Assembly: GCA_965217805.1 (NCBI GenBank) | Contig: CBDCJJ010000006.1 | Span: 269,806-333,805, forward strand | Direction: 5' to 3' | DNA: 64,000 bases | From: Sphingomonas sp. | Lineage (GTDB): Bacteria; Pseudomonadota; Alphaproteobacteria; Sphingomonadales; Sphingomonadaceae | In this document: one piece after another, positions 31,753 to 62,596 of the stretch | Position numbering within the stretch: position 1 is the stretch's first letter | Layout: each line of letters starts with the position of its first letter | Translations under genes and position numbers: made by a program | Notes under the pieces: model-generated | What the model was told of the DNA's origin: nothing | Database searches by the model: none | Seen by the model: only the letters and a program-made list of their open reading frames with translations

Positions 31753-31768
31753 ATGGGCCACCGTTCAT
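31753..31768 (-). promoter_or_regulatory. Recurrent 16-bp motif, copy 1 (ATGGGCCACCGTTCAT on + strand)
   Basis: Lies 97 bp upstream of the TonB-receptor start at 31656. One mismatch to the other three copies. Confidence 0.5.
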
Positions 31769-32000
31769 CGACCAACGCCCGGAAGTGGATTGGGAACGCC
31801 ACTCGGGCATTCGGGGGCGATTCCCTGATACTGTTAGAATGATCGTTGATCAGCGAAGCCACGCCGGGGTGCCATGTTCGTCGTATGATGCCGCCTGTGA
31901 CACTATGAAAGTGAACTATGGTCCGTTGATCACAACGAGCGCGGATGCTATCGGGTCATCGATCGTTGTCGTGCGGCGCACTTGGAGGAGGTGTTTCAGA

Positions 32001-32519
32001 ATGGGCATTGCGCCTCTTGCTCTTATGGTATCGATCGCCGCGCTTGGGGTTGAGCCATTGCCTACACCCGCGGGAACGCTTCCGGTCAGATCTTATCTCC
32101 CGCTCGCCATGGCGCAGACTGCCGCGTCGGCAGCGATGACCAAGTGCCGGGCGAACGGATTTTCCGTCGTCGTGTTCGTGTTGGATCGTGCAGGCGAACC
32201 GATCGTCATGTTGCGCGGTGACGACGTCAGTCCACACCACGTCGATTCCGCTCGCCGCAAGGCGTTCACCGCGCTGACGTTCAAGATGCCATCTGGCGAT
32301 CTGGCGACCTTCATCGAACGAAACCCAAGCGCCGCAGGCCTCAAGGATATGAACGGGGTAATCGCGTTTGGCGGCGGCCTGCCGATCCGGAGCGGCGCTG
32401 ATATCGTGGGTTCGATTGGCGTCGCCGGCGCGTGGGTCAAGGGCGCGACCGGAGATAAGGAAGCAGATGTCGTTTGCGCCCAAGCTGGCCTCGACAGCAT
32501 CGCGGCTCGGCTGAAGTGA
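32001..32519 (+). CDS. GlcG/HbpS-like (DUF336) haem-binding-type protein with signal peptide
   Basis: ATG at 32001 after GGAGGAGG. ...DRAGEPIVMLRGDDVSPHHVDSARRKAFTALTF...GGGLPIRSGADIVGSIGVAGA... is characteristic of the family. Confidence 0.7.
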   Translation: MGIAPLALMVSIAALGVEPLPTPAGTLPVRSYLPLAMAQTAASAAMTKCRANGFSVVVFVLDRAGEPIVMLRGDDVSPHHVDSARRKAFTALTFKMPSGDLATFIERNPSAAGLKDMNGVIAFGGGLPIRSGADIVGSIGVAGAWVKGATGDKEADVVCAQAGLDSIAARLK

Positions 32520-32580
32520 ACAGCGGACCCATCCGCGCCCGGCCTGCTCGACGCTTTCGCTCGCACCGAGATCATCACGG

Positions 32581-33909
32581 ATGACAAGAACCGCCGTCCC
32601 GGCCGTTTCGCGGCAGGCGAAATTAACCTTGGCGTTCATGTTCGCGGCGGCGACGCTCAACTATATGGACCGGGCGCTTCTCGGCGTGTTGCAAGAGGCG
32701 ATCAAGGTCGATCTGTCGCTCACCGATACGCAACTCGGGCTTGCCGGAGGGCCGGCCTTTGCCATCCTCTATACGTTGATGACGATCCCGCTCAGTCGTG
32801 TGGCCGACCGCAGTCACCGTACTCGATTGATGGTAGGGATCCTCAGCTTCTGGAGCGTCATGACGGCGCTTTGCGGTGCGGTCGCGAATTTCGGCCAGTT
32901 GCTGCTCGCGCGCTTTGCTGTCAGCATCGGCGAGTCCGGCGGCACGCCGATTGCTCAATCGCTCCTATCGGATCGCTTCCCGCCGGCGCGGCGTGCAGGT
33001 GCGCTGTCGATCTACACCGCCGGCGGGTTCATGGGCTACCTTGTAGCCGGCTTTCTCGGCGGAGCCATTGAGCATTCTCTCGGGTGGCGTGCGACCTTTG
33101 CGATTTGCGGTGGCCTTGGTGTTGCGGTTGCATTCCTGCTCGCACTTTTTGTCCAGGAGCCGAAGCGCTTGAACGCGCCTGCGGCTCGCGCTGTGCCGCT
33201 GCTCGAAGCCCTGCACGCGTTCAAGACCAGGAGGAGCTTCATTCACCTGTGCGTTGGCATGGGCCTGGCCAGCTTCTCGATCAACGCGATCGTATCCTTC
33301 TTCACGTCCTTTCTGCATCGCTGCTATGATCTGCCGCTGAACAAGGCCGCGTTGATCGCTGGCTTGATGACCGGCGGGGTGGGCATGGTCAGCAGTTTCG
33401 GAACTGGTTTTGCGATCGACCGGTTGCGTAAACGTGAACCGCGGATCGGCTTTTTGCTCGCTATGGCTGGGTGCGTTATCGGGTGTTTGTCTTACCTCAT
33501 CATTTTCCAGATGACGTCCTTGTCGCTTGCGCTACCGGTGATGATCTTCGCTGCTTTCTTCGGACAGATCTATCTCGCCGCCGGCTGGTCGAGCGCCCAA
33601 GACGTGGCCCCTCAGCATCTGCGCGCCACCGCTGCTGGGCTCGTCACGCTCGCGATCGGCCTGTTTGGCATCGGCACCGCTCCACCGCTGCTTGGCCTCG
33701 TCAGCGATGCCGTTGCTGCGTCGCATCTTGCCGGAACCGGCCTCTCGCCTCAATCATGCGCGGCGCTCGCGGCCGATCCTCGCTGCGCCGTCGCTCTGGC
33801 AGCGGGAGTGCGCGCGGGCCTGTCGGTGATCAGCCTGCCCCTGCTCTGGGCCGCCTTTCATTTCTGGCGCGGCAGCCGTAGCGTCGTTGCCGACATTTCG
33901 ACGCTCTGA
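32581..33909 (+). CDS. MFS transporter
   Basis: 442 aa and about 12 TM segments. Motif-A-like LSRVADRSHRTRLM. Confidence 0.85.
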   Translation: MTRTAVPAVSRQAKLTLAFMFAAATLNYMDRALLGVLQEAIKVDLSLTDTQLGLAGGPAFAILYTLMTIPLSRVADRSHRTRLMVGILSFWSVMTALCGAVANFGQLLLARFAVSIGESGGTPIAQSLLSDRFPPARRAGALSIYTAGGFMGYLVAGFLGGAIEHSLGWRATFAICGGLGVAVAFLLALFVQEPKRLNAPAARAVPLLEALHAFKTRRSFIHLCVGMGLASFSINAIVSFFTSFLHRCYDLPLNKAALIAGLMTGGVGMVSSFGTGFAIDRLRKREPRIGFLLAMAGCVIGCLSYLIIFQMTSLSLALPVMIFAAFFGQIYLAAGWSSAQDVAPQHLRATAAGLVTLAIGLFGIGTAPPLLGLVSDAVAASHLAGTGLSPQSCAALAADPRCAVALAAGVRAGLSVISLPLLWAAFHFWRGSRSVVADISTL

Positions 33910-33912
33910 TCC

Positions 33913-35853: not shown

Positions 35854-35858
35854 GCGGG

Positions 35859-36611: not shown

Positions 36612-36641
36612 GCCTTCTTCCTGCCGAAGTTCTTCCTGCCC

Positions 36642-38775: not shown

Positions 38776-38788
38776 AGACGCGAGAGCC

Positions 38789-39787: not shown

Positions 39788-39904
39788 CCTTTAATCGCTG
39801 CGTGTCAAAGCGCAGGTGGCATTGCCGGGTCTCGCCTGACGACGTCGGCCAGACCGCTCGATCTCGCGACGAAGACAGCCCATATGGCGTTTGACCTGCG
39901 CTTG

Positions 39905-39922
39905 CGATAATACAGACCATCG
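39905..39922. promoter_or_regulatory. Imperfect TetR-type operator (CGATAA-N6-CCATCG)
   Basis: Lies 27 bp upstream of the stronger site, in the divergent MBL/TetR intergenic region. Confidence 0.35.
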
Positions 39923-39931
39923 CAGGTGTAG

Positions 39932-39949
39932 CGATAATGCCCATTATCG
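39932..39949. promoter_or_regulatory. TetR-type operator (CGATAA-N6-TTATCG)
   Basis: CGATAATGCCCATTATCG has 7-bp perfect arms. It overlaps the first ATG of the TetR ORF; an alternative ATG is at 39967. Confidence 0.55.
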
Positions 39950-40620
39950 TTCGGAGTCAAGACAGAATGAAGGATTGGCCAGCTGACCACCCCAAAGCGC
40001 GCTTGATGGCGAGCAAACAAGCCGCCATATTGGAAGCTGCCCGAGACGCGTTCCTTTGCCACGGCTATGACGGTGTCAGCATGGAAACGATCGCCGACTT
40101 AGCGGGCGTCTCGGTGATGACGCTTTATCGCCATGCGCAGGGCAAGGACAATCTCTTCGCAGCGGTCGTAGCCGCGGTCTGCCATCCCGCCGACCCAGTC
40201 GAACAGGCCCGGATCGAGGAGTCGCTGCTGAAACCGCTGGGCGAGATCCTGGAGTTCGTGGCGGTCATGTTCCAGGAGCGGATCAAAAATCCGACCACCA
40301 CATCTTTGTTCAGGGTCGTGATGGTCGAGACAAGCCGGCATCCACATCTGGCGCAAATGGCGTTCGAGGGGCTGATCGGCGCTCACCAAGATGCGCTTGA
40401 TGCGTTCCTAGCGGACCGTGCCGAGACCGCATCTATAGAGGTCGAGCGCCGGCGTGAACTCGTACTCGCGTTTCTCGACCGACTTGTTGGGCTTGATAGT
40501 TACAGGGTTCTGCTCGGTTTAAGCGGTATCTCAGAAACGGAACGGTTGCAGCGAGCGCGATCGGCGACCGCCGAACTGCTCCTCGAGCTTGATCAGCAAG
40601 CGTGCACGAGGCGCGACTGA
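39937..40620 (+). CDS. TetR/AcrR-family transcriptional regulator
   Basis: ...AILEAARDAFLCHGYDGVSMETIADLAGVSVMTLYRHAQGKDNLF.... The start may be 39967. Confidence 0.85.
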   Translation: MPIIVRSQDRMKDWPADHPKARLMASKQAAILEAARDAFLCHGYDGVSMETIADLAGVSVMTLYRHAQGKDNLFAAVVAAVCHPADPVEQARIEESLLKPLGEILEFVAVMFQERIKNPTTTSLFRVVMVETSRHPHLAQMAFEGLIGAHQDALDAFLADRAETASIEVERRRELVLAFLDRLVGLDSYRVLLGLSGISETERLQRARSATAELLLELDQQACTRRD

Positions 40621-40649
40621 TCTCCGGCTTGTCGGCGCTGATACACAGC

Positions 40650-43449: not shown

Positions 43450-43471
43450 CGTGATCTGCCTTGCTGCTTTG

Positions 43472-44242: not shown

Positions 44243-44273
44243 CTCAAGTGATTGGTTCAATAGCGGCCTGGTC

Positions 44274-45320: not shown

Positions 45321-45386
45321 CTTCGTTCCTTCAGATTGTTTTTGCCACAATGCGGCTCGATCGTTCGCGGGTTGTTTACGGTCGCC

Positions 45387-46454: not shown

Positions 46455-46574
46455 CTCCGCTTAAGCGCACGTGATCGTGCCGCAGCAAACCCTTGCAGCG
46501 CCCGGACGCTTAGTGCCGTTTCTACCTATCGATCTACACCGGTTCACGGCTCAATCCAATAGGTAAATGATTTT

Positions 46575-46590
46575 ATGGCCCACCGTTCAT
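46575..46590 (-). promoter_or_regulatory. Recurrent 16-bp motif, copy 2 (ATGGCCCACCGTTCAT on + strand)
   Basis: Lies 121 bp upstream of the Rieske oxygenase start at 46454. It overlaps the stop codon of the ADH gene. Confidence 0.5.
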
Positions 46591-47726: not shown

Positions 47727-47909
47727 TTCAATGTGCTCCGCTCGAACGGTAATTTCGGGTGAATGGCCATGGATACGCCAACAAACGATTGCTCACTGTC
47801 TCGAGCGAAAGAAGCAGATCAGCAGAAGCGAACCAGCGCGGCGGCACCGCTGCGCGAATGATGCTGATAGCGCGCCTTCTTCTCCATCCGCTAGATCGGC
47901 GCTCGCGCA

Positions 47910-49049: not shown

Positions 49050-49118
49050 CGGTGACTGTTCCGATCTCCTGAGTCAGTGGCCCCTGGGCATAGTCCGAGT
49101 GTCGAGTAAGGCGCTTTG

Positions 49119-51506: not shown

Positions 51507-51591
51507 ATCCCCTCCTATCCCTGCCACCGCTGTCCGATGAGCTAGGTTAACTTACGGGCTTTTAGCTCCTGGTCAAACAGAATCTGCCACA

Positions 51592-51607
51592 ATGGCCCAC
51601 CGTTCAC
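51592..51607 (-). promoter_or_regulatory. Recurrent 16-bp motif, copy 3 (ATGGCCCACCGTTCAC on + strand)
   Basis: Lies 86 bp upstream of the TonB-receptor start at 51506. Confidence 0.5.
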
Positions 51608-51671
51608 CTGCGACTATTTTATTGCCCTTTTGCCTTTCAGCTAGCTGACGCGGGTCATTGCCGGCACCGCG

Positions 51672-52769
51672 TCAAACAGCTCCGCCTCGCGAATTTTGCG
51701 GCTTCGCAAACGAGGGCGGCGCTTTGCGCGACATCATCTGAATGTGTGCCGTCGCAGGCCCGCGGATAGACTGATACCGGTCCAAAGCCGAAGCGAGATC
51801 ATCCCACTGCAACCCTTCGAGAGCCGCCGCTAACGCGCCGGCATCCTGCATCGCCTGGTTCGCACCTTGCCCGTTCATTGGCGACATCGGATGCGCCGCA
51901 TCTCCCAATAACACGATATGTCGGCCCGCCCACTGCGCTATCGGTTCCTTATCATAAAGCGCGTGGGTGGTGATCGGGACGGTTCTGCCCTCGATGAGGC
52001 TCGTGATCGTCGGATGGAAGTCGGTGAACAGCGCCAGGAGATCGTCGGCTGGCATTGATCCCCAAAGTGCCGGCGCTGTGTCCGCTGGGATGGCGGCGTT
52101 GATCGTGACCTCCGATCCGCCACGGATCGGTAACATGATGATGCGCCGATCGACCTCGCCGAGGTCGCCGGCCTGCCAAACGCGGATACGGTCATTGGGC
52201 AGGTCTGGTGACAGCAATGATGCGGGCGCGATGAAACGGTTCGTGACCTGCTTCAGGTAGGTCATCGGCGTCGCGTCGATCAGCGTGCGCACCACCGAGC
52301 GAAGGCCGTCCGCGCCAATCAGCAGCCGCGCGCGGACGCCGCGCCCATTCTCGAACAGCGCCTCGGCATAGTCATCTTTGTCGCGGATCTGAGCAAGCCG
52401 GTGTCCGAGATGGATGCGGTCCGAAGCGGTCCGCGAGACCAGAGCTGTATGGACATCGGCACGATGCGCGCAGTGCGTCTCCCCGCCCTCCATCCCCGCT
52501 GGAGCCGTATGCAAAACGACACCCGTCTTGAGGAGAATTTCCAAGTTTTCGACGCGCGCGAGCTTTGGTTTGAGCTCATCGAGCACGCCCCATTGAGCGA
52601 GAAGCGCTCGGCTCGGCTCGCGCACGACGATGCCGCCGCCAACCTCCTTGAGTTCGGACGCCTGCTCGAAGACGTGAACATCGAGCCCGGCTTGACGCAG
52701 CGCTAGCGCCGCCGCAGCGCCGCCGATACCGCCGCCGATGATGGCGATGTCGACCAGATCGAAGTCCAT
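51672..52769 (-). CDS. FAD-dependent aromatic-ring monooxygenase (salicylate/3-hydroxybenzoate hydroxylase-like)
   Basis: DIAIIGGGIGGAAAALAL (GxGxxG), DG..S, LLGDAAHPMSPMNGQGANQA. Confidence 0.85.
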   Translation of the reverse strand: MDFDLVDIAIIGGGIGGAAAALALRQAGLDVHVFEQASELKEVGGGIVVREPSRALLAQWGVLDELKPKLARVENLEILLKTGVVLHTAPAGMEGGETHCAHRADVHTALVSRTASDRIHLGHRLAQIRDKDDYAEALFENGRGVRARLLIGADGLRSVVRTLIDATPMTYLKQVTNRFIAPASLLSPDLPNDRIRVWQAGDLGEVDRRIIMLPIRGGSEVTINAAIPADTAPALWGSMPADDLLALFTDFHPTITSLIEGRTVPITTHALYDKEPIAQWAGRHIVLLGDAAHPMSPMNGQGANQAMQDAGALAAALEGLQWDDLASALDRYQSIRGPATAHIQMMSRKAPPSFAKPQNSRGGAV

Positions 52770-53177
52770 AGCGCTCTCTACCATAATGTGTTTCCCGGAA
52801 AGATTCGGCATTAGTTGCCAAAGATCGTCAGTACGAAGTTCAACGTGAACGACGCCTCACCATTCGCTGCAGTCTGACAGCCGCGGCGCTCGAGTCAAAC
52901 CGGGAAGTCGTCAGGCCGTCATCTGAGCAGCGATACGGGTCCGTCGAGCCTACCTCTCACGATCTCGCCGCGCCGAGGGCCGCAACAAACATTGCGACGC
53001 ACCAGCATCATTCGGAGGATCACCATGGATGGCTGTGCCGGAACCCCTCACAGTTCGGCAACCCGTCGCCTGTCGCTGCTGGTAGCCGCTGTAGGTGCCG
53101 GGTCCTAACCGCCTTTCCAAGCGCAGACAGATGTTTGGCGAGCAAAAGCGGCGCGCCCTTCGAAATGGCATGGCTTG

Positions 53178-54152
53178 TTAGTCGCGTTCCGCTTTGCTGA
53201 GCCTAGTTGTGGCCTGCGCCGCCGGATTTGTTTCGTCCCAGCCGGTGATCACCATCGTCGTCCGATCATTTGCGACGGCGTAGACGCTCCAGGTCGTCCG
53301 TTCGCTCTTAATGATTGTCTTTCGGACGAGCAGATGCGGATCGATCCACCAGGATGTCGTGGTGGCATCCTCCGCATCTTGGTGCGGCTGCCCGTCCGAC
53401 CGATGATGAATTAACGCAACGGCAGGAGCGAGTGGGTCGACAAAACGCCGTTCGGTCAGCCCGCCCGCCTCGAGCGCGAAGTGAACTTCGCTCTGCAGAT
53501 CTAAAGGATTCTCCACCTCTTCATGCCACCGACCGCTGAAAAGGCTTTCAACGATATGGTCGGTGCCAGAGGTTTGGGCCGAGCGGCCGCAGCTGCCGCC
53601 TCGCAGGACATTTGCAATTCCGTGCCTGTTGAACACGCAGAGGTCTCGAGCGGCTGGCTCGGCATCCGGCCAGGTCGCGACGGCAAGCAGAGTGCCATTC
53701 GTCGATGCCGCACAGATCATCCATTCCCGTCGCTCCGGCGGAGCGACGTTATCAAGCACCAGTCTGACAACGAACCGCGCGTCAAGCCGCCAATGCTGCA
53801 CTAGCTCGCCCAGATAGGCTGGGCCTTGCGGATCCGCCCAGGGCCGACCGTCCAACGTCGAAAAGAAGTCGATCGACGCTGCGTCGGGACTCTCCGGATC
53901 CCTGTCGGCAAATTGCTGAAATCGAACGCCCTGTCCCTCGGGCGTGAACCGCCACCTGCCGAGCGTGCGCCGCATCGGTGGAAGTGCGCCGTAGCGCATT
54001 GGGGCCGCAACGCCGCGGGCCCGTTCGGGCCGGCTGCGACCCAGATCCACCAGCCAAATCCCCATCATGGGGTCATCGGGATTGACGTAAGGATCGACCC
54101 CCGACACCGGCTCTGTCACAAGCCCGCTTGCGGCTTCACCGACCGATTGCAT
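53178..54152 (-). CDS. hypothetical protein, paralogue B of a tandem pair (internally duplicated)
   Basis: Start at ATG 54152 (MQSVGEAASGLVTEPVSGVDPYV...) aligns with the N-terminus of the upstream paralogue. No family recognised. Confidence 0.55.
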   Translation of the reverse strand: MQSVGEAASGLVTEPVSGVDPYVNPDDPMMGIWLVDLGRSRPERARGVAAPMRYGALPPMRRTLGRWRFTPEGQGVRFQQFADRDPESPDAASIDFFSTLDGRPWADPQGPAYLGELVQHWRLDARFVVRLVLDNVAPPERREWMICAASTNGTLLAVATWPDAEPAARDLCVFNRHGIANVLRGGSCGRSAQTSGTDHIVESLFSGRWHEEVENPLDLQSEVHFALEAGGLTERRFVDPLAPAVALIHHRSDGQPHQDAEDATTTSWWIDPHLLVRKTIIKSERTTWSVYAVANDRTTMVITGWDETNPAAQATTRLSKAERD

Positions 54153-54181
54153 GAGCGATCTCTCGTCTAGGCGTATGGAAC

Positions 54182-55267
54182 TCACTGCTTTTCCACCCTG
54201 CTGAACACCTGAATGTCGCGATTCGACGGCGTGGCCTCGTCCCATGATGTGACGGCCATCGTGCCTCCATCGCCTGACCACGCGTAGATCGCCCACTCGC
54301 TGGTCACACCGTGCAGGCGCAGCCGCCGAATCATCAACTCGGGGCCGAGCCTCCAATTCGTGACGGTCTGTTCCGACTCCGACTGCTGCGCAGCGGGATA
54401 GTCGACGCCGTCACAGCGAAAGAAGAGAAATCGGGAGGGAAATGTGTCGCCGGAAGAACCGATGTGCCGCTCGCGAAACCCATCGCCGTCCCGCTCGAAA
54501 CTCAAGTCCGAGTGAATGGATCCACCTTGCGGCTCCATAGCGTCCTGGCCGCGGCGCAGGAACGATGACTTGTTCACGTCGAATGTCCAAGTGGCCAACA
54601 TTGGATCGCCTTTTTCGACGAGGACAGAACCCTCAGACGCTACTCCGCACGTTGGCGCGTCAGTCCCGCGCGAGTCGTAGATAGGTCCGAGATGCTTGGT
54701 GAACACCTGAAGATTATGACGATCGGGATCGGTCGAGTCCCAGCTTGTGCAAGCAAAGGTACGTCCGTCCGTCGACGGTGCCCATACCGCCCATTCCCAG
54801 CGCTCATAAATGGGGCTTGTGTTATCGAGAACCAACCGGACGATGCAGCGCGGATCGAGCCGCCACACCTGCGCAAGCTGCCCCGGCAACAAGGTGGAAT
54901 GCGGATCGGCCCAGGGCACGCCGTCCCACGTCGCGAAATACTGCATCATTGGCGCAGGCGTCGAGTCCGGTCCGTTGCCGAAGAAATAGAACGTCCGCAC
55001 TCCCTCGCCTTCCGGCACGTATGTCCATTTGCCGACACCGATACCGCCTGCGCCCGACGTCGGGCGAACGCCGTTGCGGCGGAGCGGCGTCCAGCCTTCG
55101 GGATCGGGCGGCACTGGCGACGGTCGATCATAATAGCACCGCGACGGATCGATCCACCATTCCCCAATGATGGGATCCGACCAAGACACCCGAGGGTCGA
55201 CGCCGGGGACCCCAGTGACGAGCTCCGTTCCGGGCCGGGAGTTGAGCACGGATGGAAAAGAGGTCAA
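54182..55267 (-). CDS. hypothetical protein, paralogue A of a tandem pair (internally duplicated)
   Basis: 361 aa. The motif W(R)L.P...(V/I)R.......EW..(W/Y)A.S.DG.T.A.TSWD......QVF occurs twice. Confidence 0.55.
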   Translation of the reverse strand: MTSFPSVLNSRPGTELVTGVPGVDPRVSWSDPIIGEWWIDPSRCYYDRPSPVPPDPEGWTPLRRNGVRPTSGAGGIGVGKWTYVPEGEGVRTFYFFGNGPDSTPAPMMQYFATWDGVPWADPHSTLLPGQLAQVWRLDPRCIVRLVLDNTSPIYERWEWAVWAPSTDGRTFACTSWDSTDPDRHNLQVFTKHLGPIYDSRGTDAPTCGVASEGSVLVEKGDPMLATWTFDVNKSSFLRRGQDAMEPQGGSIHSDLSFERDGDGFRERHIGSSGDTFPSRFLFFRCDGVDYPAAQQSESEQTVTNWRLGPELMIRRLRLHGVTSEWAIYAWSGDGGTMAVTSWDEATPSNRDIQVFSRVEKQ

Positions 55268-55407
55268 GGCTTCATCTCCGCTCGATCCATTATCAGCTCG
55301 GTGTCCACACGCGCGAATCTGCGCCGTGGTTCATCAGTCATTCTATTGTCTCCGAAGCGTTTGATGTCTACCCCCGCGAGAACCGGAGAAACGATGGAGG
55401 GAGCGCA

Positions 55408-57006
55408 ATGGAAGACCGTGTCGAGATCGAGTCCGCGGACAATGCCCCGGTGGCGGCGATCGCTACCGGCCAGCTCCGCGGCTACCGGGATCGAGGCGTC
55501 AGTGTCTTCAAGGGCATCCCCTACGGTGCGCCGACGGGCGGCGCCAACCGCTGGATGCCACCCGCCGAGCCCGCCGCGTGGAGCGGCGTGCGAGATGCAA
55601 CCGAGCTAGGGCCGATGTGTCCGCAGATGTTCGGCGCTCCGTTGGCGGAAGAGACAGCGGTCCTCCAACAGGGTCCAATGAGCGAAGATTGCCTCAACCT
55701 CAACGTCTGGACGTCCAGTCTCGACTCCGGTCGGCGCCCCGTCATGGTTTGGTTTCATGGGGGCGGGTTTGCGATTGGGTCAGGTGGTACGTCAACAAAC
55801 GACGGGGTCAATCTTGCGCGCAAGAACGATGTGGTGCTCGTTACGATCAACCATCGCCTAAATCTGTTCGGCTTTCTCAATCTTGCTGAGCTCGCCGGTC
55901 CGGCTTACGCCCGGTCCGCGAACGTTGGCATGCTGGACTGTGTTGCCGCGCTGGAATGGGTCCGCGACAACATCAGCACGTTCGGCGGCGATTCCAGCAA
56001 TGTCACAATCTTTGGCCAATCGGGCGGTGGCATGAAGGTGATGAACCTGATGGCTATGCCGGCGGCGGCCGGTCTTTTTCACCGTGCGATCACGCAGAGC
56101 GGATTTGCAATTCGAGCCAATGCTCCTGAGCAGGCAACTGAGATCGCGCGACTGGTTCTGAACACGCTCGAACTGAAACCCGATCAGATCGCCGAGCTTC
56201 AGGCGCTTCCGGCCGATCGGTTCGTCGCCGTGCTTGAGGCCCGTCCCGAGCTGACCTTTGCGCTGGGGCCGGTCGTCGACGGCGACACTCTGCCCGCCGG
56301 TCCATTCGATCCGTCTGCGCCCGCGCTTTCAGCTGACGTACCGATCTTGCTGGGCAGCACCGAAACCGAAATCGTGTTCCTGCCCTTTGCGCCCTTGGAC
56401 CCGATCGACGATGTCACGCTGTTTGCCAGCCTCAAGCAATATACCGCGCTTGACGATGCGAGTCTCGCCAAGCTCATCGAGGTCTATCGCACGGAGTATC
56501 CGGACCACGACAACACGTATCTGTACCAAGTGCTCGCCAGCGACTGGCTGCTCGGTGCGGATGCGGCGCTTGCGGCGGAGCGCAAGTGGGCGCTCGGCAA
56601 CGCGCCCGCATGGCTCTACTATTTTAATAAACATACCAATGCTCGCGGCGGTAAGCTGCGATCGCCGCACACATTGGAAATTCCATATGTGTTCGATACC
56701 GTCGACCGCCATCCGCCGATCCTCGGCACGGCCACAGAGGCGGATCAGACACTGGCAGACACCCTCAGTCGTACGTGGGCTACATTCGCCCGCTCTGGCA
56801 ACCCCAACAACGAAGCGATCCCCGTCTGGGCCCCGTACCATCCGCGAACGCGGCCCGTGTTGATGATCGGCGAAGAGCTCACGACAGCCGCGGACCCCCA
56901 TCGCGCCACGCGCGTGGCGGTGGCTCAGTTGAAGGCTCAAAACTCGCAGTCGCTCGCGAGTCTCGCAACAGGCGACGCGGCGGACCCTCCGATCGCCACA
57001 CCGTGA
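55408..57006 (+). CDS. Type-B carboxylesterase/lipase (PnbA-like)
   Basis: ATG at 55408 after GGAGGGA. GQLRGY..., FKGIPYGAP, VMVWFHGGGF, nucleophile elbow GQSGGG. Confidence 0.85.
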   Translation: MEDRVEIESADNAPVAAIATGQLRGYRDRGVSVFKGIPYGAPTGGANRWMPPAEPAAWSGVRDATELGPMCPQMFGAPLAEETAVLQQGPMSEDCLNLNVWTSSLDSGRRPVMVWFHGGGFAIGSGGTSTNDGVNLARKNDVVLVTINHRLNLFGFLNLAELAGPAYARSANVGMLDCVAALEWVRDNISTFGGDSSNVTIFGQSGGGMKVMNLMAMPAAAGLFHRAITQSGFAIRANAPEQATEIARLVLNTLELKPDQIAELQALPADRFVAVLEARPELTFALGPVVDGDTLPAGPFDPSAPALSADVPILLGSTETEIVFLPFAPLDPIDDVTLFASLKQYTALDDASLAKLIEVYRTEYPDHDNTYLYQVLASDWLLGADAALAAERKWALGNAPAWLYYFNKHTNARGGKLRSPHTLEIPYVFDTVDRHPPILGTATEADQTLADTLSRTWATFARSGNPNNEAIPVWAPYHPRTRPVLMIGEELTTAADPHRATRVAVAQLKAQNSQSLASLATGDAADPPIATP

Positions 57007-57269
57007 ATGTTCGAACATCGACTTCTTCACGCCACTTTCAAGCTGGTTGCCCAAGATCGTCCCCGACCGAAGCTGCGCAGCGGCTCGCGACCGGACGGTC
57101 GACTGTCCATCCGAGATAACGTGACACAATAAGGCGCGAAGCAAAGGCCCAAAAACGGCACGGCCCTTGGGAATTCGGTGCTTCAAGCGGATTCGGTGCG
57201 TCTCGAGTTAGCAATTTCGAAGGGCACGCTCCACCGGCCAACGACGTTCGTTGGCGTGCTTGTCACATG

Positions 57270-57293
57270 ATACGATAAGGTATATTATCGTAT
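57270..57293. promoter_or_regulatory. Operator-like inverted repeat (ATACGATAA-N6-TTATCGTAT)
   Basis: 9-bp perfect arms in an AT-rich stretch 60 bp upstream of the cupin gene. It has the same CGATAA-N6-TTATCG architecture as 39932-39949. Confidence 0.55.
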
Positions 57294-57353
57294 GCTACAC
57301 GGATGTTCTGCTTCACGCTCGGAGTTGGAATCCCTGTTGAGGAGGCAATTACG

Positions 57354-57797
57354 ATGCTGGCGGCGAAAATCATTCCTGGAGAAGATGGCGAAATTCTGCA
57401 GTTTGGACCGACGAGAATACACATTCTGGAAGACGGCTCTGGTACGGAAAACCGCATAAGCGCGATTTCATCGACGATGGCCCCGCAAACCAAGGGGCCG
57501 CCGCCCCACATTCACCTGATGCACGACGAATGTTTTCTCGTTACCGATGGCACTCTGCGTTTCATCATAGGCGACGAGCAAAGGGACGCAAAAGTCGGAG
57601 ATTACGTAGTCGTGCCGGTGGGTGCGCCGCATACTTTCGTTAACGCGAGCGACCATCCGGTGACGTTCTTTACGACATTTACATCCGCCTTTTACATCGA
57701 GTCCTTTCGGGAACTGGCTAAGCTTGCTGCGGAGGGAAACTGGAATAAGCAGACTGAGGCGGATGTTCTGCATAAATATGCGACGATACTGATCTAG
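57354..57797 (+). CDS. Cupin-domain protein
   Basis: ATG at 57354 after GGAGG (8-nt spacer). PPHIHLMHDECFLV..G.....VGDYVVVPVGAPHTF are the cupin motifs. Confidence 0.75.
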   Translation: MLAAKIIPGEDGEILQFGPTRIHILEDGSGTENRISAISSTMAPQTKGPPPHIHLMHDECFLVTDGTLRFIIGDEQRDAKVGDYVVVPVGAPHTFVNASDHPVTFFTTFTSAFYIESFRELAKLAAEGNWNKQTEADVLHKYATILI

Positions 57798-57874
57798 GTA
57801 GCGATCGCTTACCCCTTTGATATCCTGGCTCACTCTCGTCCGTGAGCCAGGATCGAACGGTCAAGGTCTCTCTA

Positions 57875-58249
57875 ATGACAAATCTGCTGAACGGAACTCT
57901 ATGGGCGGCGCAAGTCGGCCTGTGCTCGGTCTTCATGTTCGCCGGCGCCATGAAACTGACGAAGACGCCTCAGGGCTTGGCTGATATGGGATGGGCTTGG
58001 GCCGAAGCCATCCCACCGCGGTTCACTCGATTGGTTGGCATTTTAGAGTTGCTCGGCGCGATCGGCATTGTGTTGCCTGCGCTCACGCACATCAAACCCT
58101 TTCTAGTGCCGCTCGCCGCGATCGGGTTCGTCGTGCTACAGGTTTCAGCAATCGTCCTGCACGCGAGTCGCGGAGAGGCATCCAAAACGCTGTGGTTCAA
58201 TCTTCTGCTTCTCTCAGCGTCCTTATTTACGGCATGGGGACGCTGGTGA
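57875..58249 (+). CDS. DoxX-family membrane protein
   Basis: Four hydrophobic helices. ...FAGAMKL...LVGILELLGAIGIVLP... is the DoxX-like pattern. Confidence 0.7.
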   Translation: MTNLLNGTLWAAQVGLCSVFMFAGAMKLTKTPQGLADMGWAWAEAIPPRFTRLVGILELLGAIGIVLPALTHIKPFLVPLAAIGFVVLQVSAIVLHASRGEASKTLWFNLLLLSASLFTAWGRW

Positions 58250-58491
58250 CTGATTGTTGAACCAGGAGCACGGAATCTGCCAGAGAGGCTCGGATCGCGG
58301 CTACGGACTCGTAACTTCCCGATAAGCCAAACGATGGGCATGTTCGCGCTGCCGAACTTAGAGATTCTTTTGGCGTGGGATCAGCGCTTGTTCTCAACCA
58401 GATCAATGCAACGCGGATCTCAATGCCGGTCTATCGCGACTATTTGAACTTTATACGGCCCAGCGGGTCTACACCTAGCGAGATGTAAAGT

Positions 58492-59316
58492 TCACCGCCC
58501 GCGAAACACGGGACGACGTTTTTCCGAAAATGCCTTGACTGCTTCGCGATGATCCTCGCTTGCGTCGGCGGCGGCGATTTGCCGACAGAGTTCAGTGCTT
58601 CGCGCCTCGACAGTACCATTCGCCAGCGCTTCCAGAATGGACTTGATGCCGCTGACCGCCAATGGTGCTCCGCTCGCCAGGACCGCCGCAAGATCGTTTG
58701 CCGCAGCTAACGCGTTTCCTTCCACCAGCTCGTCAAGCAATCCCATAGAAAGCGCGCTCTCTGCATTGAATCGTTGGCCGGTCATTAGCAGGCGTTTGGC
58801 GCCCACCAGGCCGACAAGCTGGTAGAGTCGTGCGCACTTCGCAACATTATAGACCAGGCCCATTTTAACTGCAGATACAGAGAAGTTGGCTGTTAGGTCC
58901 GCGACGCGAAAGTCGGTACTCGCGGCAAGCGCAACCCCTCCGGCGAAGCAGACGCCCGATATCACTGCAATCGTCGGTTTCGAAGAGGCGGTAATCGCTG
59001 CAAGAGCGCCGTCGACAGACCCCTCATAAAGCGACACCTGATCCGGCGTCGAACGCACCTGCGGAAACTCGGCGATGTCGGCGCCCGCCGAAAAGCACTG
59101 GTCTCCGCCCGTCAGAATGACGACCCGCACGTCAGGATCGGCGTCAATCTCACGGAAGAGATTGCGAAGGTGGCGCCACATGCCCAGCGTGATTGCATTC
59201 TTCTTGGCGGCGCGGTCGAGATCGATCGTCAGCACGCCATTGGCGAGTGTGCGCTTGATCGGGACGTGGTGACCGGTTTCGGCGGCGTTGCGATTGGGAT
59301 CAGTCACGCAGGCCAC
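58492..59316 (-). CDS. Enoyl-CoA hydratase/isomerase family
   Basis: ...KKNAIT...LTGGDQCFSAGADI...AVISGVCFAGGVALAASTDFRV.... Confidence 0.85.
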   Translation of the reverse strand: MACVTDPNRNAAETGHHVPIKRTLANGVLTIDLDRAAKKNAITLGMWRHLRNLFREIDADPDVRVVILTGGDQCFSAGADIAEFPQVRSTPDQVSLYEGSVDGALAAITASSKPTIAVISGVCFAGGVALAASTDFRVADLTANFSVSAVKMGLVYNVAKCARLYQLVGLVGAKRLLMTGQRFNAESALSMGLLDELVEGNALAAANDLAAVLASGAPLAVSGIKSILEALANGTVEARSTELCRQIAAADASEDHREAVKAFSEKRRPVFRGR

Positions 59317-60076
59317 CGTATGATGCCCAGGAAGCGCCTACCAACCATCCGGCATCGACCGGCAGGTTGACGCCCGTAATCGCGCTCGACATCGGCGAAC
59401 ATAGAAACAGCACTCCATCGGCAATCTCCTCGACGTCGACGAGGCGTCTGAGCGCGGAATGTCGGCACATCAATTCCGGGTCCGTCACATGTTCTTCAAA
59501 TCCGCGCACCACGCCCGGGGTCGGTACTGTTCCCGGCGACAAAGCATTCACCCGCACGCCGCCCCCCCCCCATTCGGCAGCGAGACATTCAACCTGGCTG
59601 ATCAGCGCCGCCTTTGCAGGCGCGTAGGCATGAAGCGGTGTGGAACGCATTCCGGCAACCGACGCGATCGTTACAATCGCCCCCTTTTCCCGCTGCGTCA
59701 TTCGAAGCCCCACCGCTCGCGTAACTAGGTAGGTGCCGCGCAAATGCACGCCGACAATCCTGTCCCAGACGCTCTGCGCCAGTTCGTTCGGCGGTACCGT
59801 GTTCTGTAAGTTGCCAGCGCAATTGACCAGGACACCCAGCGGTCCGATATCCCGTTCGATCTGGTCGACCACCCTATCGACTATCGCATCATCGGAAATG
59901 TCCAGCTCGTACGCCTTGGCGCCGATTTCGTCTGCCGCTGCGCGCGCGAGGTCGATTCGTCGATCAGCGATCGCGACTTGCGCGCCGGCTTCAGCAAGTT
60001 TGCGGGCGGAGGCAAAGCCGATGCCGCGCGCACCGCCGGTGACCAGCGCCGACGTACCCGACAGATCAATCGTCAT
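59300..60076 (-). CDS. SDR-family oxidoreductase
   Basis: ALVTGGARGIGFA, NCAG, YAPAK. Confidence 0.85.
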   Translation of the reverse strand: MTIDLSGTSALVTGGARGIGFASARKLAEAGAQVAIADRRIDLARAAADEIGAKAYELDISDDAIVDRVVDQIERDIGPLGVLVNCAGNLQNTVPPNELAQSVWDRIVGVHLRGTYLVTRAVGLRMTQREKGAIVTIASVAGMRSTPLHAYAPAKAALISQVECLAAEWGGGGVRVNALSPGTVPTPGVVRGFEEHVTDPELMCRHSALRRLVDVEEIADGVLFLCSPMSSAITGVNLPVDAGWLVGASWASYGGLRD

Positions 60077-60143
60077 ACACGCTTCCTTCGCTCACATTGG
60101 ATTGCGCTGTTCACATGCCGCTGGGGTCGCCCGTGCATCGGCA

Positions 60144-60683
60144 TCAATGGAAAACCCAAGCATCGCGACTCAAGCTTCTCTCCGTCGGCTGAAATTCAGT
60201 AACGAAGTCGGCGCCGCCCTTGGCGATACGAACGTTGACGTCCGGTCCCGTCAGTCGGACGTCAACGACCGCGTCACCGTGCACCAGAGACTCGACCACC
60301 TGCGCCGCTATGTCCTCCCGGTTGCAAAGAAGCCCAAGCGCAAACATTCCAATGATCAGTTTGAGATGTTCTTCATTCTGTGAGTACCGCGCATCACCAG
60401 CGAGCCGCTCCTCCTCGATTTCCGCGTGCAGACGACAGATATTCTCTCGAAGCAGAGCAAGTAACTCAAGTTCGGGCAAAGCGTGTTGCATCCTGATCGC
60501 GTGCGCAATGGCTGCACTTCCTTGCGTTGAGGGCACGAGTATCGAAAAGCTCGCTCCCTCGCACGCGATCGTCACGAGCGTTCCCGCGTCGGCGCTAAGT
60601 TGATGCAGCTCTGCTTTCTTCATGATGTCCTCGAAAGGGTCCAAAGCATCAGAGTTGCGGCGATCACCTCGTAGGGTCGCCAT
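60144..60683 (-). CDS. hypothetical protein
   Basis: 179-aa ORF (an alternative start, MKKAEL, is at 60623). No family recognised. Confidence 0.4.
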   Translation of the reverse strand: MATLRGDRRNSDALDPFEDIMKKAELHQLSADAGTLVTIACEGASFSILVPSTQGSAAIAHAIRMQHALPELELLALLRENICRLHAEIEEERLAGDARYSQNEEHLKLIIGMFALGLLCNREDIAAQVVESLVHGDAVVDVRLTGPDVNVRIAKGGADFVTEFQPTERSLSRDAWVFH

Positions 60684-60696
60684 TGAGGCCGTACAC

Positions 60697-61044
60697 TCAT
60701 AACGTAAGCTCGAAGCTGAGCAGGCCGATGACGATCAGCGCCGGAACCGCGTGGACATATTCACGGTGGCGGACGAGTGTCGCAACTGCAGCAAGCATAG
60801 TCACAAGACCCAGTGCAGCACCGAGCGGCCGAGTTATTGAAACGACAAGGAGAATGGCGGTAGCGAGCTCGACCACGCCAGTCACCAAATTGAACCACGA
60901 AGGATATCCCCATCGCCTGAAATCGTTGACGACCGACTTAGGTCCGACAAGATTTACCGCGCCACCGAAGATGAAAAATATTGTCAAAAGGCCGAGGACG
61001 ACCCATTCTAGCAAGCTACTCGGCATATCCTGATGAACTCCCAC
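60697..61044 (-). CDS. DoxX-family membrane protein
   Basis: LLEWVVLGLLTIFFIFGGAVNL..., WFNLVTGVVELATAILLV..., four helices. Confidence 0.7.
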   Translation of the reverse strand: MGVHQDMPSSLLEWVVLGLLTIFFIFGGAVNLVGPKSVVNDFRRWGYPSWFNLVTGVVELATAILLVVSITRPLGAALGLVTMLAAVATLVRHREYVHAVPALIVIGLLSFELTL

Positions 61045-61113
61045 TAGAGCCGAGATCCTATGTCGATCAGGGCAAAAGTGACCGGCAGGTTCGTCCTCCC
61101 TTCGGCAACGGGA

Positions 61114-62355
61114 CTACTTGAACCGTGGCCACACCTTACCCATGAATCGATCGAGTTGATCCAGCTGCTGGTCGCGCGATGTGTCGGGCGCCACCCAATA
61201 TTCCCAGATCAGCCATTCAACGTTGCCGTCATCGGAATAGCAGCCTTGCAGCCCCTCCAACTGGCGGCTGACATCGTCGGGCGTACCGCAGATCAGTTGC
61301 CCTTGATCGAGCATGCGCTGAGCGCATTCGCGGTCGCTCGCGAACGTGACCATCTTGTTGGGATCGTCCGACGGGATGCGGCTTTGCTCATTGATGCCCC
61401 AAAGGCTGAAATAGTTGTTGAACCAGTATCCGCCCGTCTGCACCGCCAGTTCGAAGGCTTCCTCGAACGTATCCCCAATGTATATCTTGCGTAAGGGAGC
61501 AATGCCTTGTCCGAGCTGCCTATCCTTTCCGACTTTGGCCGCTTCGGATTGATAATCCTCGCACGCCTTGCGAAAGCGCTCGGGCGCACCGTCGTATATG
61601 ATGGTGGTGAATTGCTGCTGCGCGACCTGCACGAATGTCGCCCATGAATGAGTGTACGGGATCCAGATGTCCGGTATCTTCAACGGCTTTGGTACAACGC
61701 CTATTCTATGGACGGTTCCCTCATCGTCGACCTCGCCCTCGCCGCCGAAATCGCGGGTCCACGTTGCCACGGGCCAATTGGGAATGCCCGTCGCGGGATA
61801 GGGTGCCTGATAGTGCTTGCCGTTGTGATTAAAGGTATCCTCGGTCCAGGCCTTCATGACCACGTCAAGATACTCATTGAAAATCTCGCGATTGAGGGCG
61901 TCGGCCTCGCGATCCATGGGCCCCGAGCCGATGCGTTCTCGTTGCATCAGCGTTTGCATCCAGCGGGTCACGTAACCGCGGGCGAAGCAAACCCCTGCAA
62001 GCCGATCGGGAAACATATTGTCGAAGAATGCGACGTTTTCTGCCGAACGGATCGGATCATTGGCCGGCAGCACAATCGACAGAGGAATAAATTTGAGGCG
62101 ATCGGTTAAAGCCGCAAGTTTGGAGTACCAAAGCAGGCTGTTCGGAATCGACTCGTTACCTTCGGTGTGGAAGTGATGTTCCGTAACGCCGAAGGCATCG
62201 ACTCCCGTCGTGTCGCAAGCCCGGGCGAGCATCTCCAGGTCCGAGAGCGTTTTTTGATACGTCTCGACATCGCGACCGATCGGGCGCTTGGCACGACGCT
62301 CCTCCGGGCTGACACGCGCGCCGGTCGGCGGGAGCACAACTAATTTCATCGACAT
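61114..62355 (-). CDS. LLM-class (luciferase-like) flavin-dependent oxidoreductase
   Basis: ...GVDAFGVTEHHFHTEG.... 413 aa with a TIM-barrel LLM pattern. Confidence 0.75.
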   Translation of the reverse strand: MSMKLVVLPPTGARVSPEERRAKRPIGRDVETYQKTLSDLEMLARACDTTGVDAFGVTEHHFHTEGNESIPNSLLWYSKLAALTDRLKFIPLSIVLPANDPIRSAENVAFFDNMFPDRLAGVCFARGYVTRWMQTLMQRERIGSGPMDREADALNREIFNEYLDVVMKAWTEDTFNHNGKHYQAPYPATGIPNWPVATWTRDFGGEGEVDDEGTVHRIGVVPKPLKIPDIWIPYTHSWATFVQVAQQQFTTIIYDGAPERFRKACEDYQSEAAKVGKDRQLGQGIAPLRKIYIGDTFEEAFELAVQTGGYWFNNYFSLWGINEQSRIPSDDPNKMVTFASDRECAQRMLDQGQLICGTPDDVSRQLEGLQGCYSDDGNVEWLIWEYWVAPDTSRDQQLDQLDRFMGKVWPRFK

Positions 62356-62580
62356 TGTCCCTTCATGAGCGCGCCTCGAACCGGCGCGGCCGGGCGATCT
62401 TGCAGTTCAGCCGTGCGGCGCGGCCTTCGAAGCCCGGCACCGACCCGCGCAGCAATAATGGCTGGGGAATCATCTTTCGTAAAGAGGCGCATTCGCCTAT
62501 GCCCGCGTCGTGACGTCAGCTCGGCGTTCGCCAATGAGGTCATCGAGCGTCGAAGCCATAGCCGTCGTCCACAATTCTCT

Positions 62581-62596
62581 ATGAACGGTGGGCCAT
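62581..62596 (+). promoter_or_regulatory. Recurrent 16-bp motif, copy 4 (ATGAACGGTGGGCCAT on + strand)
   Basis: Lies 73 bp upstream of the PaaK-like ligase start at 62669 and abuts the predicted -35 box. Confidence 0.5.

Follow-up and report, generated by a model that had tools for sequence, protein, structure and literature searches.

At least eight promoters of a degradation island in the 25-64 kb part of the window (the whole 64,000-nucleotide stretch of Sphingomonas sp. DNA analysed here) carry a 21-bp operator, and we consider it probable that these operators are bound by a FadR-like TetR-family protein and that the resulting repression is relieved by a CoA thioester. The units with operators comprise two TonB-dependent receptors, Rieske and flavin oxygenases, luciferase-like monooxygenases, an esterase, an MFS transporter and a PaaK-like CoA ligase. 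Taken together, they appear to form an ordinary, previously unannotated local regulon of at least eight promoters in a sphingomonad-type degradation island, and its layout is the standard multi-operator arrangement of TetR repressors. An anonymous repeated word hereby becomes a regulatory model in which eight operators are mapped, a candidate regulator is named and an inducer class is predicted for an island of approximately 40 kb.

The operator and its sites

The motif TGAACGGTGG(G/C)CCAT occurs four times in the window, in all cases in intergenic DNA and far above chance. The 15-mer ATGGSCCACCGTTCA is located at 31753-31767, 46575-46589 and 51592-51606 on the plus strand and, as its reverse complement, at 62582-62596; three of the four copies agree at all 15 positions, and the fourth deviates at the G/C position alone. 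When up to two mismatches are allowed, the window contains five matches compared to 0.29 expected, a number attained in none of 100 dinucleotide shuffles, and with up to three mismatches there are seven matches compared to 1.7 expected. As pointed out in the earlier note, the motif has a single orientation relative to the downstream gene, toward which all four copies read TGAACGGTGGSCCAT, and lies 73-121 bp away from it (the distances from the motif end to the gene starts at 31656, 46454, 51506 and 62669 are 97, 121, 86 and 73 nt, respectively). The motif columns are the sole invariant ones: the flanks of the four copies do not align, the similarity is limited to 21 bp, none of the longer repeats in the window includes the operator sites, and no Rfam family matched at these sites. 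The site at 46575 overlaps the TGA stop codon of an upstream alcohol dehydrogenase gene (46587-47726), a detail absent from the earlier note.

Judged from the sequence, the 15-mer makes up two thirds, the better-conserved part, of a 21-bp palindrome with the clade consensus TGAAYG-RTGG-N-CCAY-NRTTCA. The 15/16-mer had been described as weakly dyad-symmetric; the full palindrome replaces that description, with the variable G/C base as the centre of symmetry. The operator consists of three 7-bp units or, in an alternative reading, of two overlapping TGR-N8-YCA inverted repeats with a 7-bp offset. Some of the window operators show a single strong half, others full symmetry, and the palindrome is retained through substitutions (e.g., TGACTGATGGACCATTGATCA in contig L125). 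Scanning the window with a matrix for which the training sites came exclusively from other genomes (hereafter, the ortholog-only matrix) yielded, as the eight best-ranked matches, the four original copies and four additional sites at 25054, 31912, 52846 and 55320 (Table 1), so that the four-site regulon proposed originally expands to at least eight sites in the window. All eight matches are intergenic although about 84% of the window is coding, an outcome with a chance probability of about 4e-7, and no copies at true-site score were found in the coding sequence of the window, contradicting a random spread that would include genes. With regard to the additional site at 31912, the HbpS-like Pfam domain encoded next to it begins only at residue 140 of a long ORF, so the true start probably lies near 32001, which would put the operator upstream of it.

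Table 1. Operators and putative promoters in the window (numbered sites are those of the earlier note)
Feature	Sequence	Position	Strand	Context	Score (bits)
Ligase operator (site 4)	TGAACGGTGGGCCATTGATCG	62582..62602	+	Before PaaK-like ligase operon	23.1 (ortholog-only matrix)
Receptor operator (site 3)	TGAACGGTGGGCCATTGTGGC	51586..51606	-	Before TonB-dependent receptor-LLM-ADH operon	
Rieske operator (site 2)	TGAACGGTGGGCCATAAAATC	46569..46589	-	Before Rieske oxygenase-NMT1_3-SDR-LLM-FMN reductase-amidohydrolase operon	
Receptor operator (site 1)	TGAACGGTGGCCCATCGGACA	31747..31767	-	Before TonB-dependent receptor 29296-31656	22.6
Additional operator, near-perfect palindrome	TGAACTATGGTCCGTTGATCA	31912..31932	+	Faces divergent HbpS-like/MFS/oxidoreductase/dienelactone hydrolase operon	20.9 (ortholog-only matrix); 17.4 (distant-family matrix)
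Additional operator	CGAATGGTGAGGCGTCGTTCA	52846..52866	-	Before FAD-dependent monooxygenase 51672-52811	16.6
Additional operator	TGACTGATGAACCACGGCGCA (minus-strand reading)	55320..55340	.	Between divergent genes for unknown 340-aa protein (54182-55210, minus) and carboxylesterase (55405-57006, plus)	15.5
Probable outlying operator, palindrome	TGAACGACGGGCCATGTTTCA	25054..25074	.	19 nt past ribBA, 230-365 nt upstream of CoA-transferase operon; target gene uncertain	14.9 (ortholog-only matrix); 19.3 (distant-family matrix, top window match)
Putative ligase promoter (predicted from sequence)	-35 TTGATC (62596-601), 17-nt spacer, -10 TAATAT (62619-24)	62596..62624	+	-35 element overlapped by right arm of ligase operator	
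Divergent LLM promoter block	-35 TTTACG (62478-83), 17-nt spacer, -10 CATTAT (62455-60)	62453..62484	-	Second conserved island in alignment A4	

The operators exist, are exclusively intergenic and are kept at orthologous promoters; in particular, all four original sites are retained in related contigs in which the flanking DNA diverges. Orthologs of the ligase operator are present in L001 (9940-60), L005 (9922-42), L125 (2209-29) and L127 (7574-94), and in the corresponding alignment (A4) the operator stands out as a conserved island. The receptor operator at 51586 has orthologs in L209 (7993-8013, TGAACGATGAGCCACTGTGGA) and L210 (9545-65, TGAATGGTGGGCCATCAAGCA); in the alignment of receptor promoters (A8), with which the operator at 31747 also aligns, the operator, -35-like and -10-like blocks are conserved. 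For the Rieske operator, the orthologous sites are L001 699-719 (with an exact 15-mer), L005 2243-63 and L209 12970-90, and the Rieske/NMT1 alignment (A6) shows conservation of the operator together with TTGGAW-17-TAnAnn. Among the additional sites, 52846 has an identical copy at the orthologous place in L209 (6713-33), and 55320 has an identical copy at L209 4234-54 and a related site, TGAACCGTCAGCCAT, at the equivalent place in L001 (4962-76). The original proposal of a shared cis-regulatory site that defines an unannotated regulon upstream of several operons hence survives the tests of both randomness and conservation at orthologous promoters. The spacer and the -10 element of the divergent LLM promoter also seem to resemble a weak operator (TGATTCCCCAGCCATTATTGC).

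The candidate regulator

The likely binder of the operator, as predicted from sequence and synteny, is a FadR-like TetR-family protein. Its gene is absent from the window, and the earlier note was correct in finding no regulator there that could be paired with the motif. All syntenic loci (L001-L005, L125 and L208) have the TetR gene behind the ligase-SGL-ACAD operon, and it adjoins the CoA ligase in all close loci. Contig L208 overlaps the window at positions 63107-64000, with 96.9% nucleotide identity, and runs on into the SGL, ACAD and TetR genes, whereas no TetR homologue was listed for a contig matching in length the one that carries the 100%-identical ligase; because of this 97%-identical contig, we infer the presence of the TetR gene in the source genome, where it likely lies about 2.3-3 kb beyond position 64000. 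The TetR copies are 71-77% identical to that of L001, the helix-turn-helix segment (ILMITQ..VANGTFYNYFESRQDLF) is nearly unchanged, and operator-like sites are present upstream of the TetR gene in L125, L001, L005 and L208.

Membership of the protein in the TetR family is indicated by the PF00440 (TetR_N) domain recorded for the gene in L001, L005, L125 and L208. The AlphaFold model (pLDDT 88.6) consists of nine helices, and the top Foldseek matches were all TetR proteins, with SaFadR, FasR, BsFadR and BhFadR represented. A phmmer search retrieved 6el2 (1e-18), 5gp9 (9e-12) and 3whb (3e-7). Thus, the nearest relatives by both sequence and structure are acyl-CoA-binding TetRs, which places the protein in the FadR-like subgroup. 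The operator is FadR-like as well, being a pseudo-palindrome of about 16-21 bp with overlapping inverted repeats that occurs at multiple promoters, including upstream of the regulator gene itself. With 46-49 bits against a cut-off of 200 for the NCBIfam equivalog NF053878, the protein is a relative of the named FadR rather than its ortholog.

The palindrome also accompanies the TetR gene over larger evolutionary distances. Among 80 metagenomic loci with TetR homologues that are 27-63% identical (best segment), 29 have a palindrome, called as TGAATNRTGRNYCAYNATTCA with at least 15 of 18 positions matching, in the 300 bp that precede the TetR gene, and the gene content of these 29 loci is otherwise different. 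These upstream regions account for 3.4% of the DNA and contain 29 of the 60 palindrome matches; similarly, the 7% of the DNA outside ORFs accounts for 49 of 66 sites. The neighbours of the distant TetR homologues include CoA ligases, acyl-CoA dehydrogenases, enoyl-CoA hydratases and SDRs, with an enrichment of CoA-metabolism genes. This type of palindrome recurs across many metagenomic contigs ahead of distantly related TetR genes, so the matrix can serve to predict regulons of the subfamily elsewhere.

Repression, activation and other explanations

In the scenario that we favour, TetR dimers bound to the operators would repress the island units in the absence of an inducer. As the candidate effector, either the CoA thioester that the ligase produces or an acyl-CoA related to it would fill the C-terminal pocket; ligand-bound TetR would then leave the DNA, such that the uptake and degradation genes would be induced together. 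In the TetR family, ligand binding normally abolishes DNA binding, which for catabolic genes implies repression. If the model is true, deletion of the TetR gene should turn the whole island on, which would make it easier to find the substrate and to work out what the two TonB-dependent receptors do.

The position of the operators relative to the promoters bears on the direction of control. At the ligase, TTGMTC-17-TAnnnn is found at unchanged spacing in L001, L005 and L125. The promoter, previously described as a good sigma-70 TTGATC-17-TAATAT, holds up in its position, which is conserved in four orthologous loci, but not in its quality because it matches 8 of 12 positions and was not called by the promoter scan. 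Indeed, the scan called none of the target promoters, and all assignments are weak consensus matches, the -35 elements of the target promoters being poor. Based on these weak predictions, the operator centres would be located at about -39 (ligase), -52 to -55 (receptors, Rieske/NMT1 and distant TetR promoters) and -72 to -77 (TetR genes of close relatives). The TetR gene promoters have a perfect TTGACA, and in a distant clade the operator is 7 nt from TTGACA on either side.

Simple promoter occlusion seldom involves centres near -53, or at -72 to -77 as at the TetR genes, whereas activators typically have them; class I and class II activator sites are centred near -41.5 or -61.5, and at further helical turns upstream. 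On the alternative reading, the same sites would be activator sites, and RNA polymerase would be recruited by the TetR-like protein or a different factor, in a class I-like manner from about -53 or a class II-like manner from about -40. The activator role suggested in the earlier note retains some probability because several sites centre near -53, a position that the promoters of the receptors and of Rieske/NMT1 share with the distant clade, and the poor -35 elements of the target promoters fit such a role. TetR-family activators do exist: FasR of Mycobacterium tuberculosis, which ranks second among the structural neighbours of the candidate and is also an NCBIfam match, is a TetR-like sensor of long acyl-CoA with a binding site upstream of the promoter that it controls. 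FasR, however, activates a biosynthetic gene and its ligand turns expression off, a logic that is ill-suited to a degradative island; given the usual ligand release of TetRs, the substrate would then turn the catabolic genes off. Moreover, the ligase operator overlaps the conserved -35 hexamer, and TetR promoters with a perfect TTGACA should need no activation, so we regard activation as unlikely. A more elaborate proposal, to which we give only a modest chance, is that three tandem TGAnTCA-like heptamers constitute the operator code of a widespread, uncharacterised FadR-like TetR subfamily. Instead of covering the promoter, its members would bind at a constant distance of about 53 bp ahead of the transcription start, where they would activate under ligand control or else block the polymerase alpha subunit, and in sphingomonads they would couple TonB-dependent uptake to a CoA-dependent pathway.

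Assignment of the palindrome to a different regulator, such as the island TetR encoded at 39937-40620 or a factor encoded elsewhere, with the FadR-like protein linked merely by synteny, appears quite improbable. The FadR-like gene is indeed outside the window, and a homologue of the 39937-type TetR adjoins the FadR-like TetR in L125, with another one in L209, which suggests that two TetRs travel with the cluster. Nevertheless, the palindrome tracks the FadR-like gene in the 29 distant loci, whereas the matrix scan found no site in the region upstream of the window's own TetR gene (39788-39936), and an alignment of the helix-turn-helix segment shows differences between the two proteins along its whole length. 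Finally, the notion that the motif is a dispersed repeat (a REP/MITE end, transposon terminus or recombination site) or recurs by chance can draw on the four exact or near-exact copies over 15 nt and on the IS elements present in the window. It is hardly credible, given that the similarity ends at 21 bp outside any longer repeat or Rfam family, that copies are lacking in genes, that chance would give 0.29 matches in the window, and that the position relative to genes is conserved across genomes, with substitutions preserving the palindrome; all good copies are intergenic and at conserved promoter positions, unlike a REP/MITE-type repeat.

Relation to characterised regulators

Several known catabolic regulons were compared with the proposed FadR-like TetR regulon. 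The ligase is not a PaaK equivalog, with 206-211 bits against PaaK cut-offs of 646-700, and no Pfam or NCBIfam match to the paa ring-oxygenase was found among the cluster proteins and called neighbour genes examined, in contrast to what a PaaR/paa regulon would contain. In actinobacterial steroid catabolism, the TetR repressors KstR and KstR2 act through numerous operators across a large catabolic island, an arrangement like the one proposed here; their half-sites contain GAAC, and the KstR2 effector is a CoA thioester. The 14-bp KstR motif TnnAACnnGTTnnA differs in length and spacing from the 21-bp site, and the candidate TetR scores 28-31 bits against the NCBIfam cut-off of 280 for the KstR equivalog.

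The FadR proteins of Bacillus (B. halodurans FadR and B. subtilis YsiA) share with the candidate the TetR fold and an acyl-CoA-type pocket (target-normalised TM 0.75-0.80), as well as several operators per regulon and a site at the regulator's own promoter. The B. halodurans protein binds as a dimer of dimers to a 21-bp pseudo-palindrome that consists of two overlapping inverted repeats with TGA...TCA half-sites (PMC5397183). The differences are the sequence identity of only 17-21%, the offset of the overlapping repeats (7 bp here vs 4 bp in Bacillus) and the targets, which are receptors, oxygenases and the PaaK-like ligase here and beta-oxidation genes in Bacillus. The best match overall is S. 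acidocaldarius FadR (SaFadR; PDB 6el2 and 6en8; phmmer 1e-18, target-normalised TM 0.86), which represses a 30-kb cluster from four semi-palindromic sites, is released by acyl-CoA and binds as one or two dimers depending on the operator (PMC6449355). SaFadR is archaeal, its structural alignment with the candidate gives an identity of 22-23%, its motif measures 16 bp compared to 21 bp here, and its cluster encodes lipases and beta-oxidation enzymes; the two systems are alike in the local multi-operator catabolic cluster, with the mix of half-strong and symmetric operators seen here.

The 15-mer and the predicted 21-bp operator

The earlier note had described, from the sequence alone, a motif standing before four operons in a common orientation, and a pattern search of the window with a position check bore this out: ATGGSCCACCGTTCA occurs exactly four times, each time in the same orientation relative to the gene downstream, with 73-121 nt between the end of the copy and the gene start named in that note. 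A fifth copy carries two mismatches. Allowing up to two mismatches, the window holds 5 matches against 0.29 by chance, a number that none of 100 shuffles reached; with up to three, there are 7 matches against 1.7 expected. When 265 nt around each of the four copies were aligned, the motif columns were the only invariant ones, and no repeat of at least 40 nt containing the four copies was found in the window. An RNA element at the sites is ruled out because they match no Rfam family and the site at the ligase sits on a -35 element or upstream of it. The exact 15-mer is found in at least 119 stretches of GTDB genomes, and the 85 listed have one match each and come from unrelated phyla, as chance predicts; the two sphingomonad-type loci among these listed matches, L053 and L113, have unrelated gene contexts. 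The L113 locus (Altererythrobacter segetis), in which no homologues of window genes were found, carries the exact 15-mer and, some 50 nt from it, an 11-nt copy in inverted orientation, GAACGGTGGGC; the two could form a further operator pair or be there by coincidence.

Syntenic contigs, reached via homologues of the PaaK-like ligase, have 21-bp palindromes of the form TGA-N3-RTGG-N-CCAY-N3-TCA in front of the ligase gene, at the position orthologous to the window site (L001, L005, L125 and L127; see table). Set against these sites, the 15-mer is the left two thirds of the predicted palindrome, and its variable G/C base is the symmetry centre. A symmetric matrix was trained on sites from other contigs only and then run on the window. 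All of its eight top positions are intergenic, although about 84% of the window is coding (probability by chance approximately 4e-7 by our own arithmetic), and the following ranks score below 11 bits and fall within genes. Therefore, the window regulon has at least eight predicted operators: the motif does precede the four operons of the earlier note, but the number four does not hold. The predicted targets are the two TonB-dependent receptor operons, the Rieske/NMT1_3/LLM operon (LLM, luciferase-like monooxygenase), the HbpS-like/MFS operon, the FAD monooxygenase, the divergent pair of an esterase and an unknown protein, the ligase operon (possibly also the divergent LLM operon) and, probably, the CoA-transferase operon.

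In our own reading, the operator can be taken as a pair of TGR-N8-YCA repeats shifted by 7 bp from each other. Each of the four exact copies in the window would then hold one complete repeat and one degenerate second repeat, and the apparent asymmetry of the 15-mer would result from this degeneracy.

Random spread of the motif, including inside genes, and its loss at orthologous promoters, the outcomes that the earlier note had named as speaking against a regulon, are not what we observe, because the sites are kept at orthologous promoters and the top-ranking ones are intergenic. Only two conserved islands stand out when the divergent LLM-ligase intergenic region is aligned, one consisting of the palindrome and a TTGMTC-17-TAnnnn promoter-like element and the other of the LLM promoter block. 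The site at the Rieske/NMT1_3 promoter is kept in L001 (as the exact 15-mer), L005 and L209, with a conserved TTGGAW-17-TAnAnn at most 9 nt downstream. Four promoters have a site in L209, which comes from a close relative with a 90% identical receptor: those of the receptor, Rieske, monooxygenase and esterase genes. Two of these sites are identical to those of the window, and in the other two the core substitutions are purine-purine or pyrimidine-pyrimidine and allowed by the consensus. The more distant contig L210 has TGAATGGTGGGCCATCAAGCA before its receptor gene, and three blocks, namely the operator, a -35-like and a -10-like element, align across four receptor promoters.

The LLM promoter block itself is strongly conserved in four genomes, and its spacer and -10 region (TGATTCCCCAGCCATTATTGC) have TGA, CCAT and ATT in common with the operator; the block could represent a second, weak operator or reflect plain promoter conservation.

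Coordinates of sites and associated features (positions in the window unless a contig is named)
Feature	Position	Strand	Description
Exact 15-mer copies	31753-31767, 46575-46589, 51592-51606	+	ATGGSCCACCGTTCA
Exact 15-mer copy	62582-62596	-	ATGGSCCACCGTTCA
Fifth 15-mer copy	25054-25068		two mismatches
Predicted operators (starts)	62582, 31747, 31912, 52846, 55320, 25054, 51586, 46569		top eight matrix positions
Ligase-upstream site	L001		TGATTGGTGAGCCATTGCTCA
Ligase-upstream site	L005		TGACTGGTGGACCATTGCTCA
Ligase-upstream site	L125		TGACTGATGGACCATTGATCA
Ligase-upstream site	L127		CGAACGGTGGCCCACCAGTCA
LLM promoter block	62453-62484	-	TTTACG-17-CATTAT
15-mer with inverted copy	L113 7612-7700
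Second TetR (TetR_C_7 type)	39937-40620; L125 7029-7619; L209 18937-19590
tRNA-Gln gene	L001 14815-14889
IS copies	2906-4390, 16348-17832		1,485 bp each, inverted, 100% identical
Skipping-rope RNA (RF02924)	7084-7180	-	51.9 bits, gathering score 36.7, full length
TetR-like ORF	23180-23983		267 aa
LLM paralogues	42346-43449, 47910-49049
Adjacent gene pair	53178-55267		proteins of ~340 aa each

A FadR-like TetR protein as candidate regulator

A convergent gene for a FadR-like TetR protein comes next after the ligase-SGL-ACAD operon in L001-L005, L125 and L208. The copies are 71-77% identical to that of L001 and hardly differ in the helix-turn-helix segment (ILMITQ..VANGTFYNYFESRQDLF). No homologue of this TetR, SGL or ACAD is detectable within the window. 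The L208 contig is 96.9% identical at the nucleotide level to window positions 63107-64000 and runs on into the SGL, ACAD and TetR genes, so that in this near-identical relative the regulator lies approximately 2.3-3 kb past the point where the window ends; by extension, we infer a FadR-like TetR gene beyond position 64000 in the source genome as well. Among the TetR homologues listed, none is on a contig as long as the one with the identical ligase. Operator-like sites are also present upstream of the TetR gene itself in L125, L001, L005 and L208, 26-31 nt before a TTGACA-16/17-TATCSY promoter.

The strongest link between regulator and palindrome comes from the sites predicted in 80 distant metagenomic loci encoding TetR homologues 27-63% identical over the best segment. 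Many of these TetR genes are closely preceded by palindromes that the matrix built on sphingomonad sites detects, and 29 of the 80 loci have a match to TGAATNRTGRNYCAYNATTCA, at 15 or more of 18 positions, no more than 300 bp upstream of the TetR gene; the TetR-upstream stretches make up 3.4% of the DNA but hold 29 of the 60 matches. Of the 66 sites in the metagenomic loci, 49 are located outside ORFs, in a fraction that amounts to 7% of the DNA; in some of the loci, the array reaches four heptamers. Genes for CoA ligases, acyl-CoA dehydrogenases, enoyl-CoA hydratases and SDRs predominate around these homologues.

The candidate carries PF00440, and its nearest solved relatives are S. acidocaldarius FadR (SaFadR; 1e-18), the FadR proteins of B. 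halodurans (BhFadR) and B. subtilis (BsFadR), and KstR. Its confidently predicted structure (pLDDT 88.6) superposes best on SaFadR (TM 0.86, normalised to target length), BsFadR (0.80), BhFadR (0.79) and FasR (0.76). The protein falls short of equivalog status for every named regulator, with 49 bits for FadR (cut-off 200) and about 30 bits for KstR (cut-off 280). BhFadR binds as a dimer of dimers to the 21-bp pseudo-palindrome GATGAATGAATACTCATTCAT, which contains two overlapping inverted repeats (PMC5397183); the operator predicted here would likewise consist of overlapping inverted repeats, but with an offset of 7 bp instead of 4 bp. SaFadR acts from four sites to repress a 30-kb cluster; the number of dimers bound, one or two, varies with the operator, and acyl-CoA releases the protein (PMC6449355). 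The proposed arrangement is that of a standard multi-operator TetR regulon. Searches of the literature found neither the 15-mer nor a description of this TetR subfamily, its operator or its gene cluster, the FadP motif of beta-proteobacteria lying outside the comparison.

The two TetR genes of the window, at 39937-40620 and 23180-23983, were rejected as encoding the binder: neither product has tblastn similarity to the candidate, the aligned helix-turn-helix segments differ from that of the candidate, and no site precedes position 39937. A second TetR accompanies the cluster in L125 and L209 as in the window; the L125 copy, 64% identical to that of the window, is encoded directly upstream of the FadR-like TetR gene.

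Beyond the point matching window position 63107 (L208 13892), the L208 ligase gene is cut, with the C-terminal 291 codons left and unrelated DNA beyond, which is either a rearrangement or an assembly join. In L001, about 590 bp separate the TetR gene from a tRNA-Gln gene beyond it. Past this tRNA gene, beyond the shared region, the genes of L001 and L002 differ, which suggests a tRNA-associated island boundary as the end of the cluster in the L001 genome. No plasmid records resembling window positions 44000-64000 were found.

Promoter geometry and sign of regulation

A consensus promoter scan called nothing at the four 15-mer sites, and promoter positions are therefore taken solely from cross-genome conservation. 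The conserved -35-like hexamer of the ligase promoter is formed by the right arm of the operator, which implies occlusion. The operator centre is at about -52 to -55 at the receptor and Rieske promoters and at about -72 to -77 at the TetR genes of close relatives. In a distant clade, where the site lies between divergent promoters, 7 nt from TTGACA on either side, the centre is likewise at about -52 to -55. All of these promoters match the consensus weakly. In general, TetR proteins come off DNA once a ligand is bound, and catabolic genes have to be induced by their substrate; repression is therefore the most coherent model: the TetR protein would repress the island genes, and a CoA thioester would relieve the repression. 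We consider repression the probable sign of regulation and activation from these sites rather unlikely.

Other features of the window

The window (61% G+C) contains IS copies as well as a catabolic island of sphingomonad type that spans about 25 to 64 kb. The two IS copies, each with a 463-aa transposase-like ORF, flank about 12 kb of sugar-utilisation genes (LacI, MFS, TonB-dependent receptor, beta-glucosidase-like) in a layout that resembles a composite transposon, and the skipping-rope RNA match lies upstream of the LacI-family gene. The TetR-like ORF at 23180 is located between the genes for the A and B subunits of 3-oxoacid CoA-transferase, downstream of the outlying predicted operator at 25054. 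The paralogous LLM genes belong to neighbouring operons of the regulon and have a 214-nt stretch of 73% nucleotide identity; together with the promoter architecture common to both TonB-dependent receptors, they suggest module duplication within the island. Finally, the adjacent gene pair encodes proteins similar to each other in motifs (WRLDPR.IVRLVLDN) and matched by no Pfam or NCBIfam family, and the pair is conserved in L001, L005 and L209 under predicted operator control.
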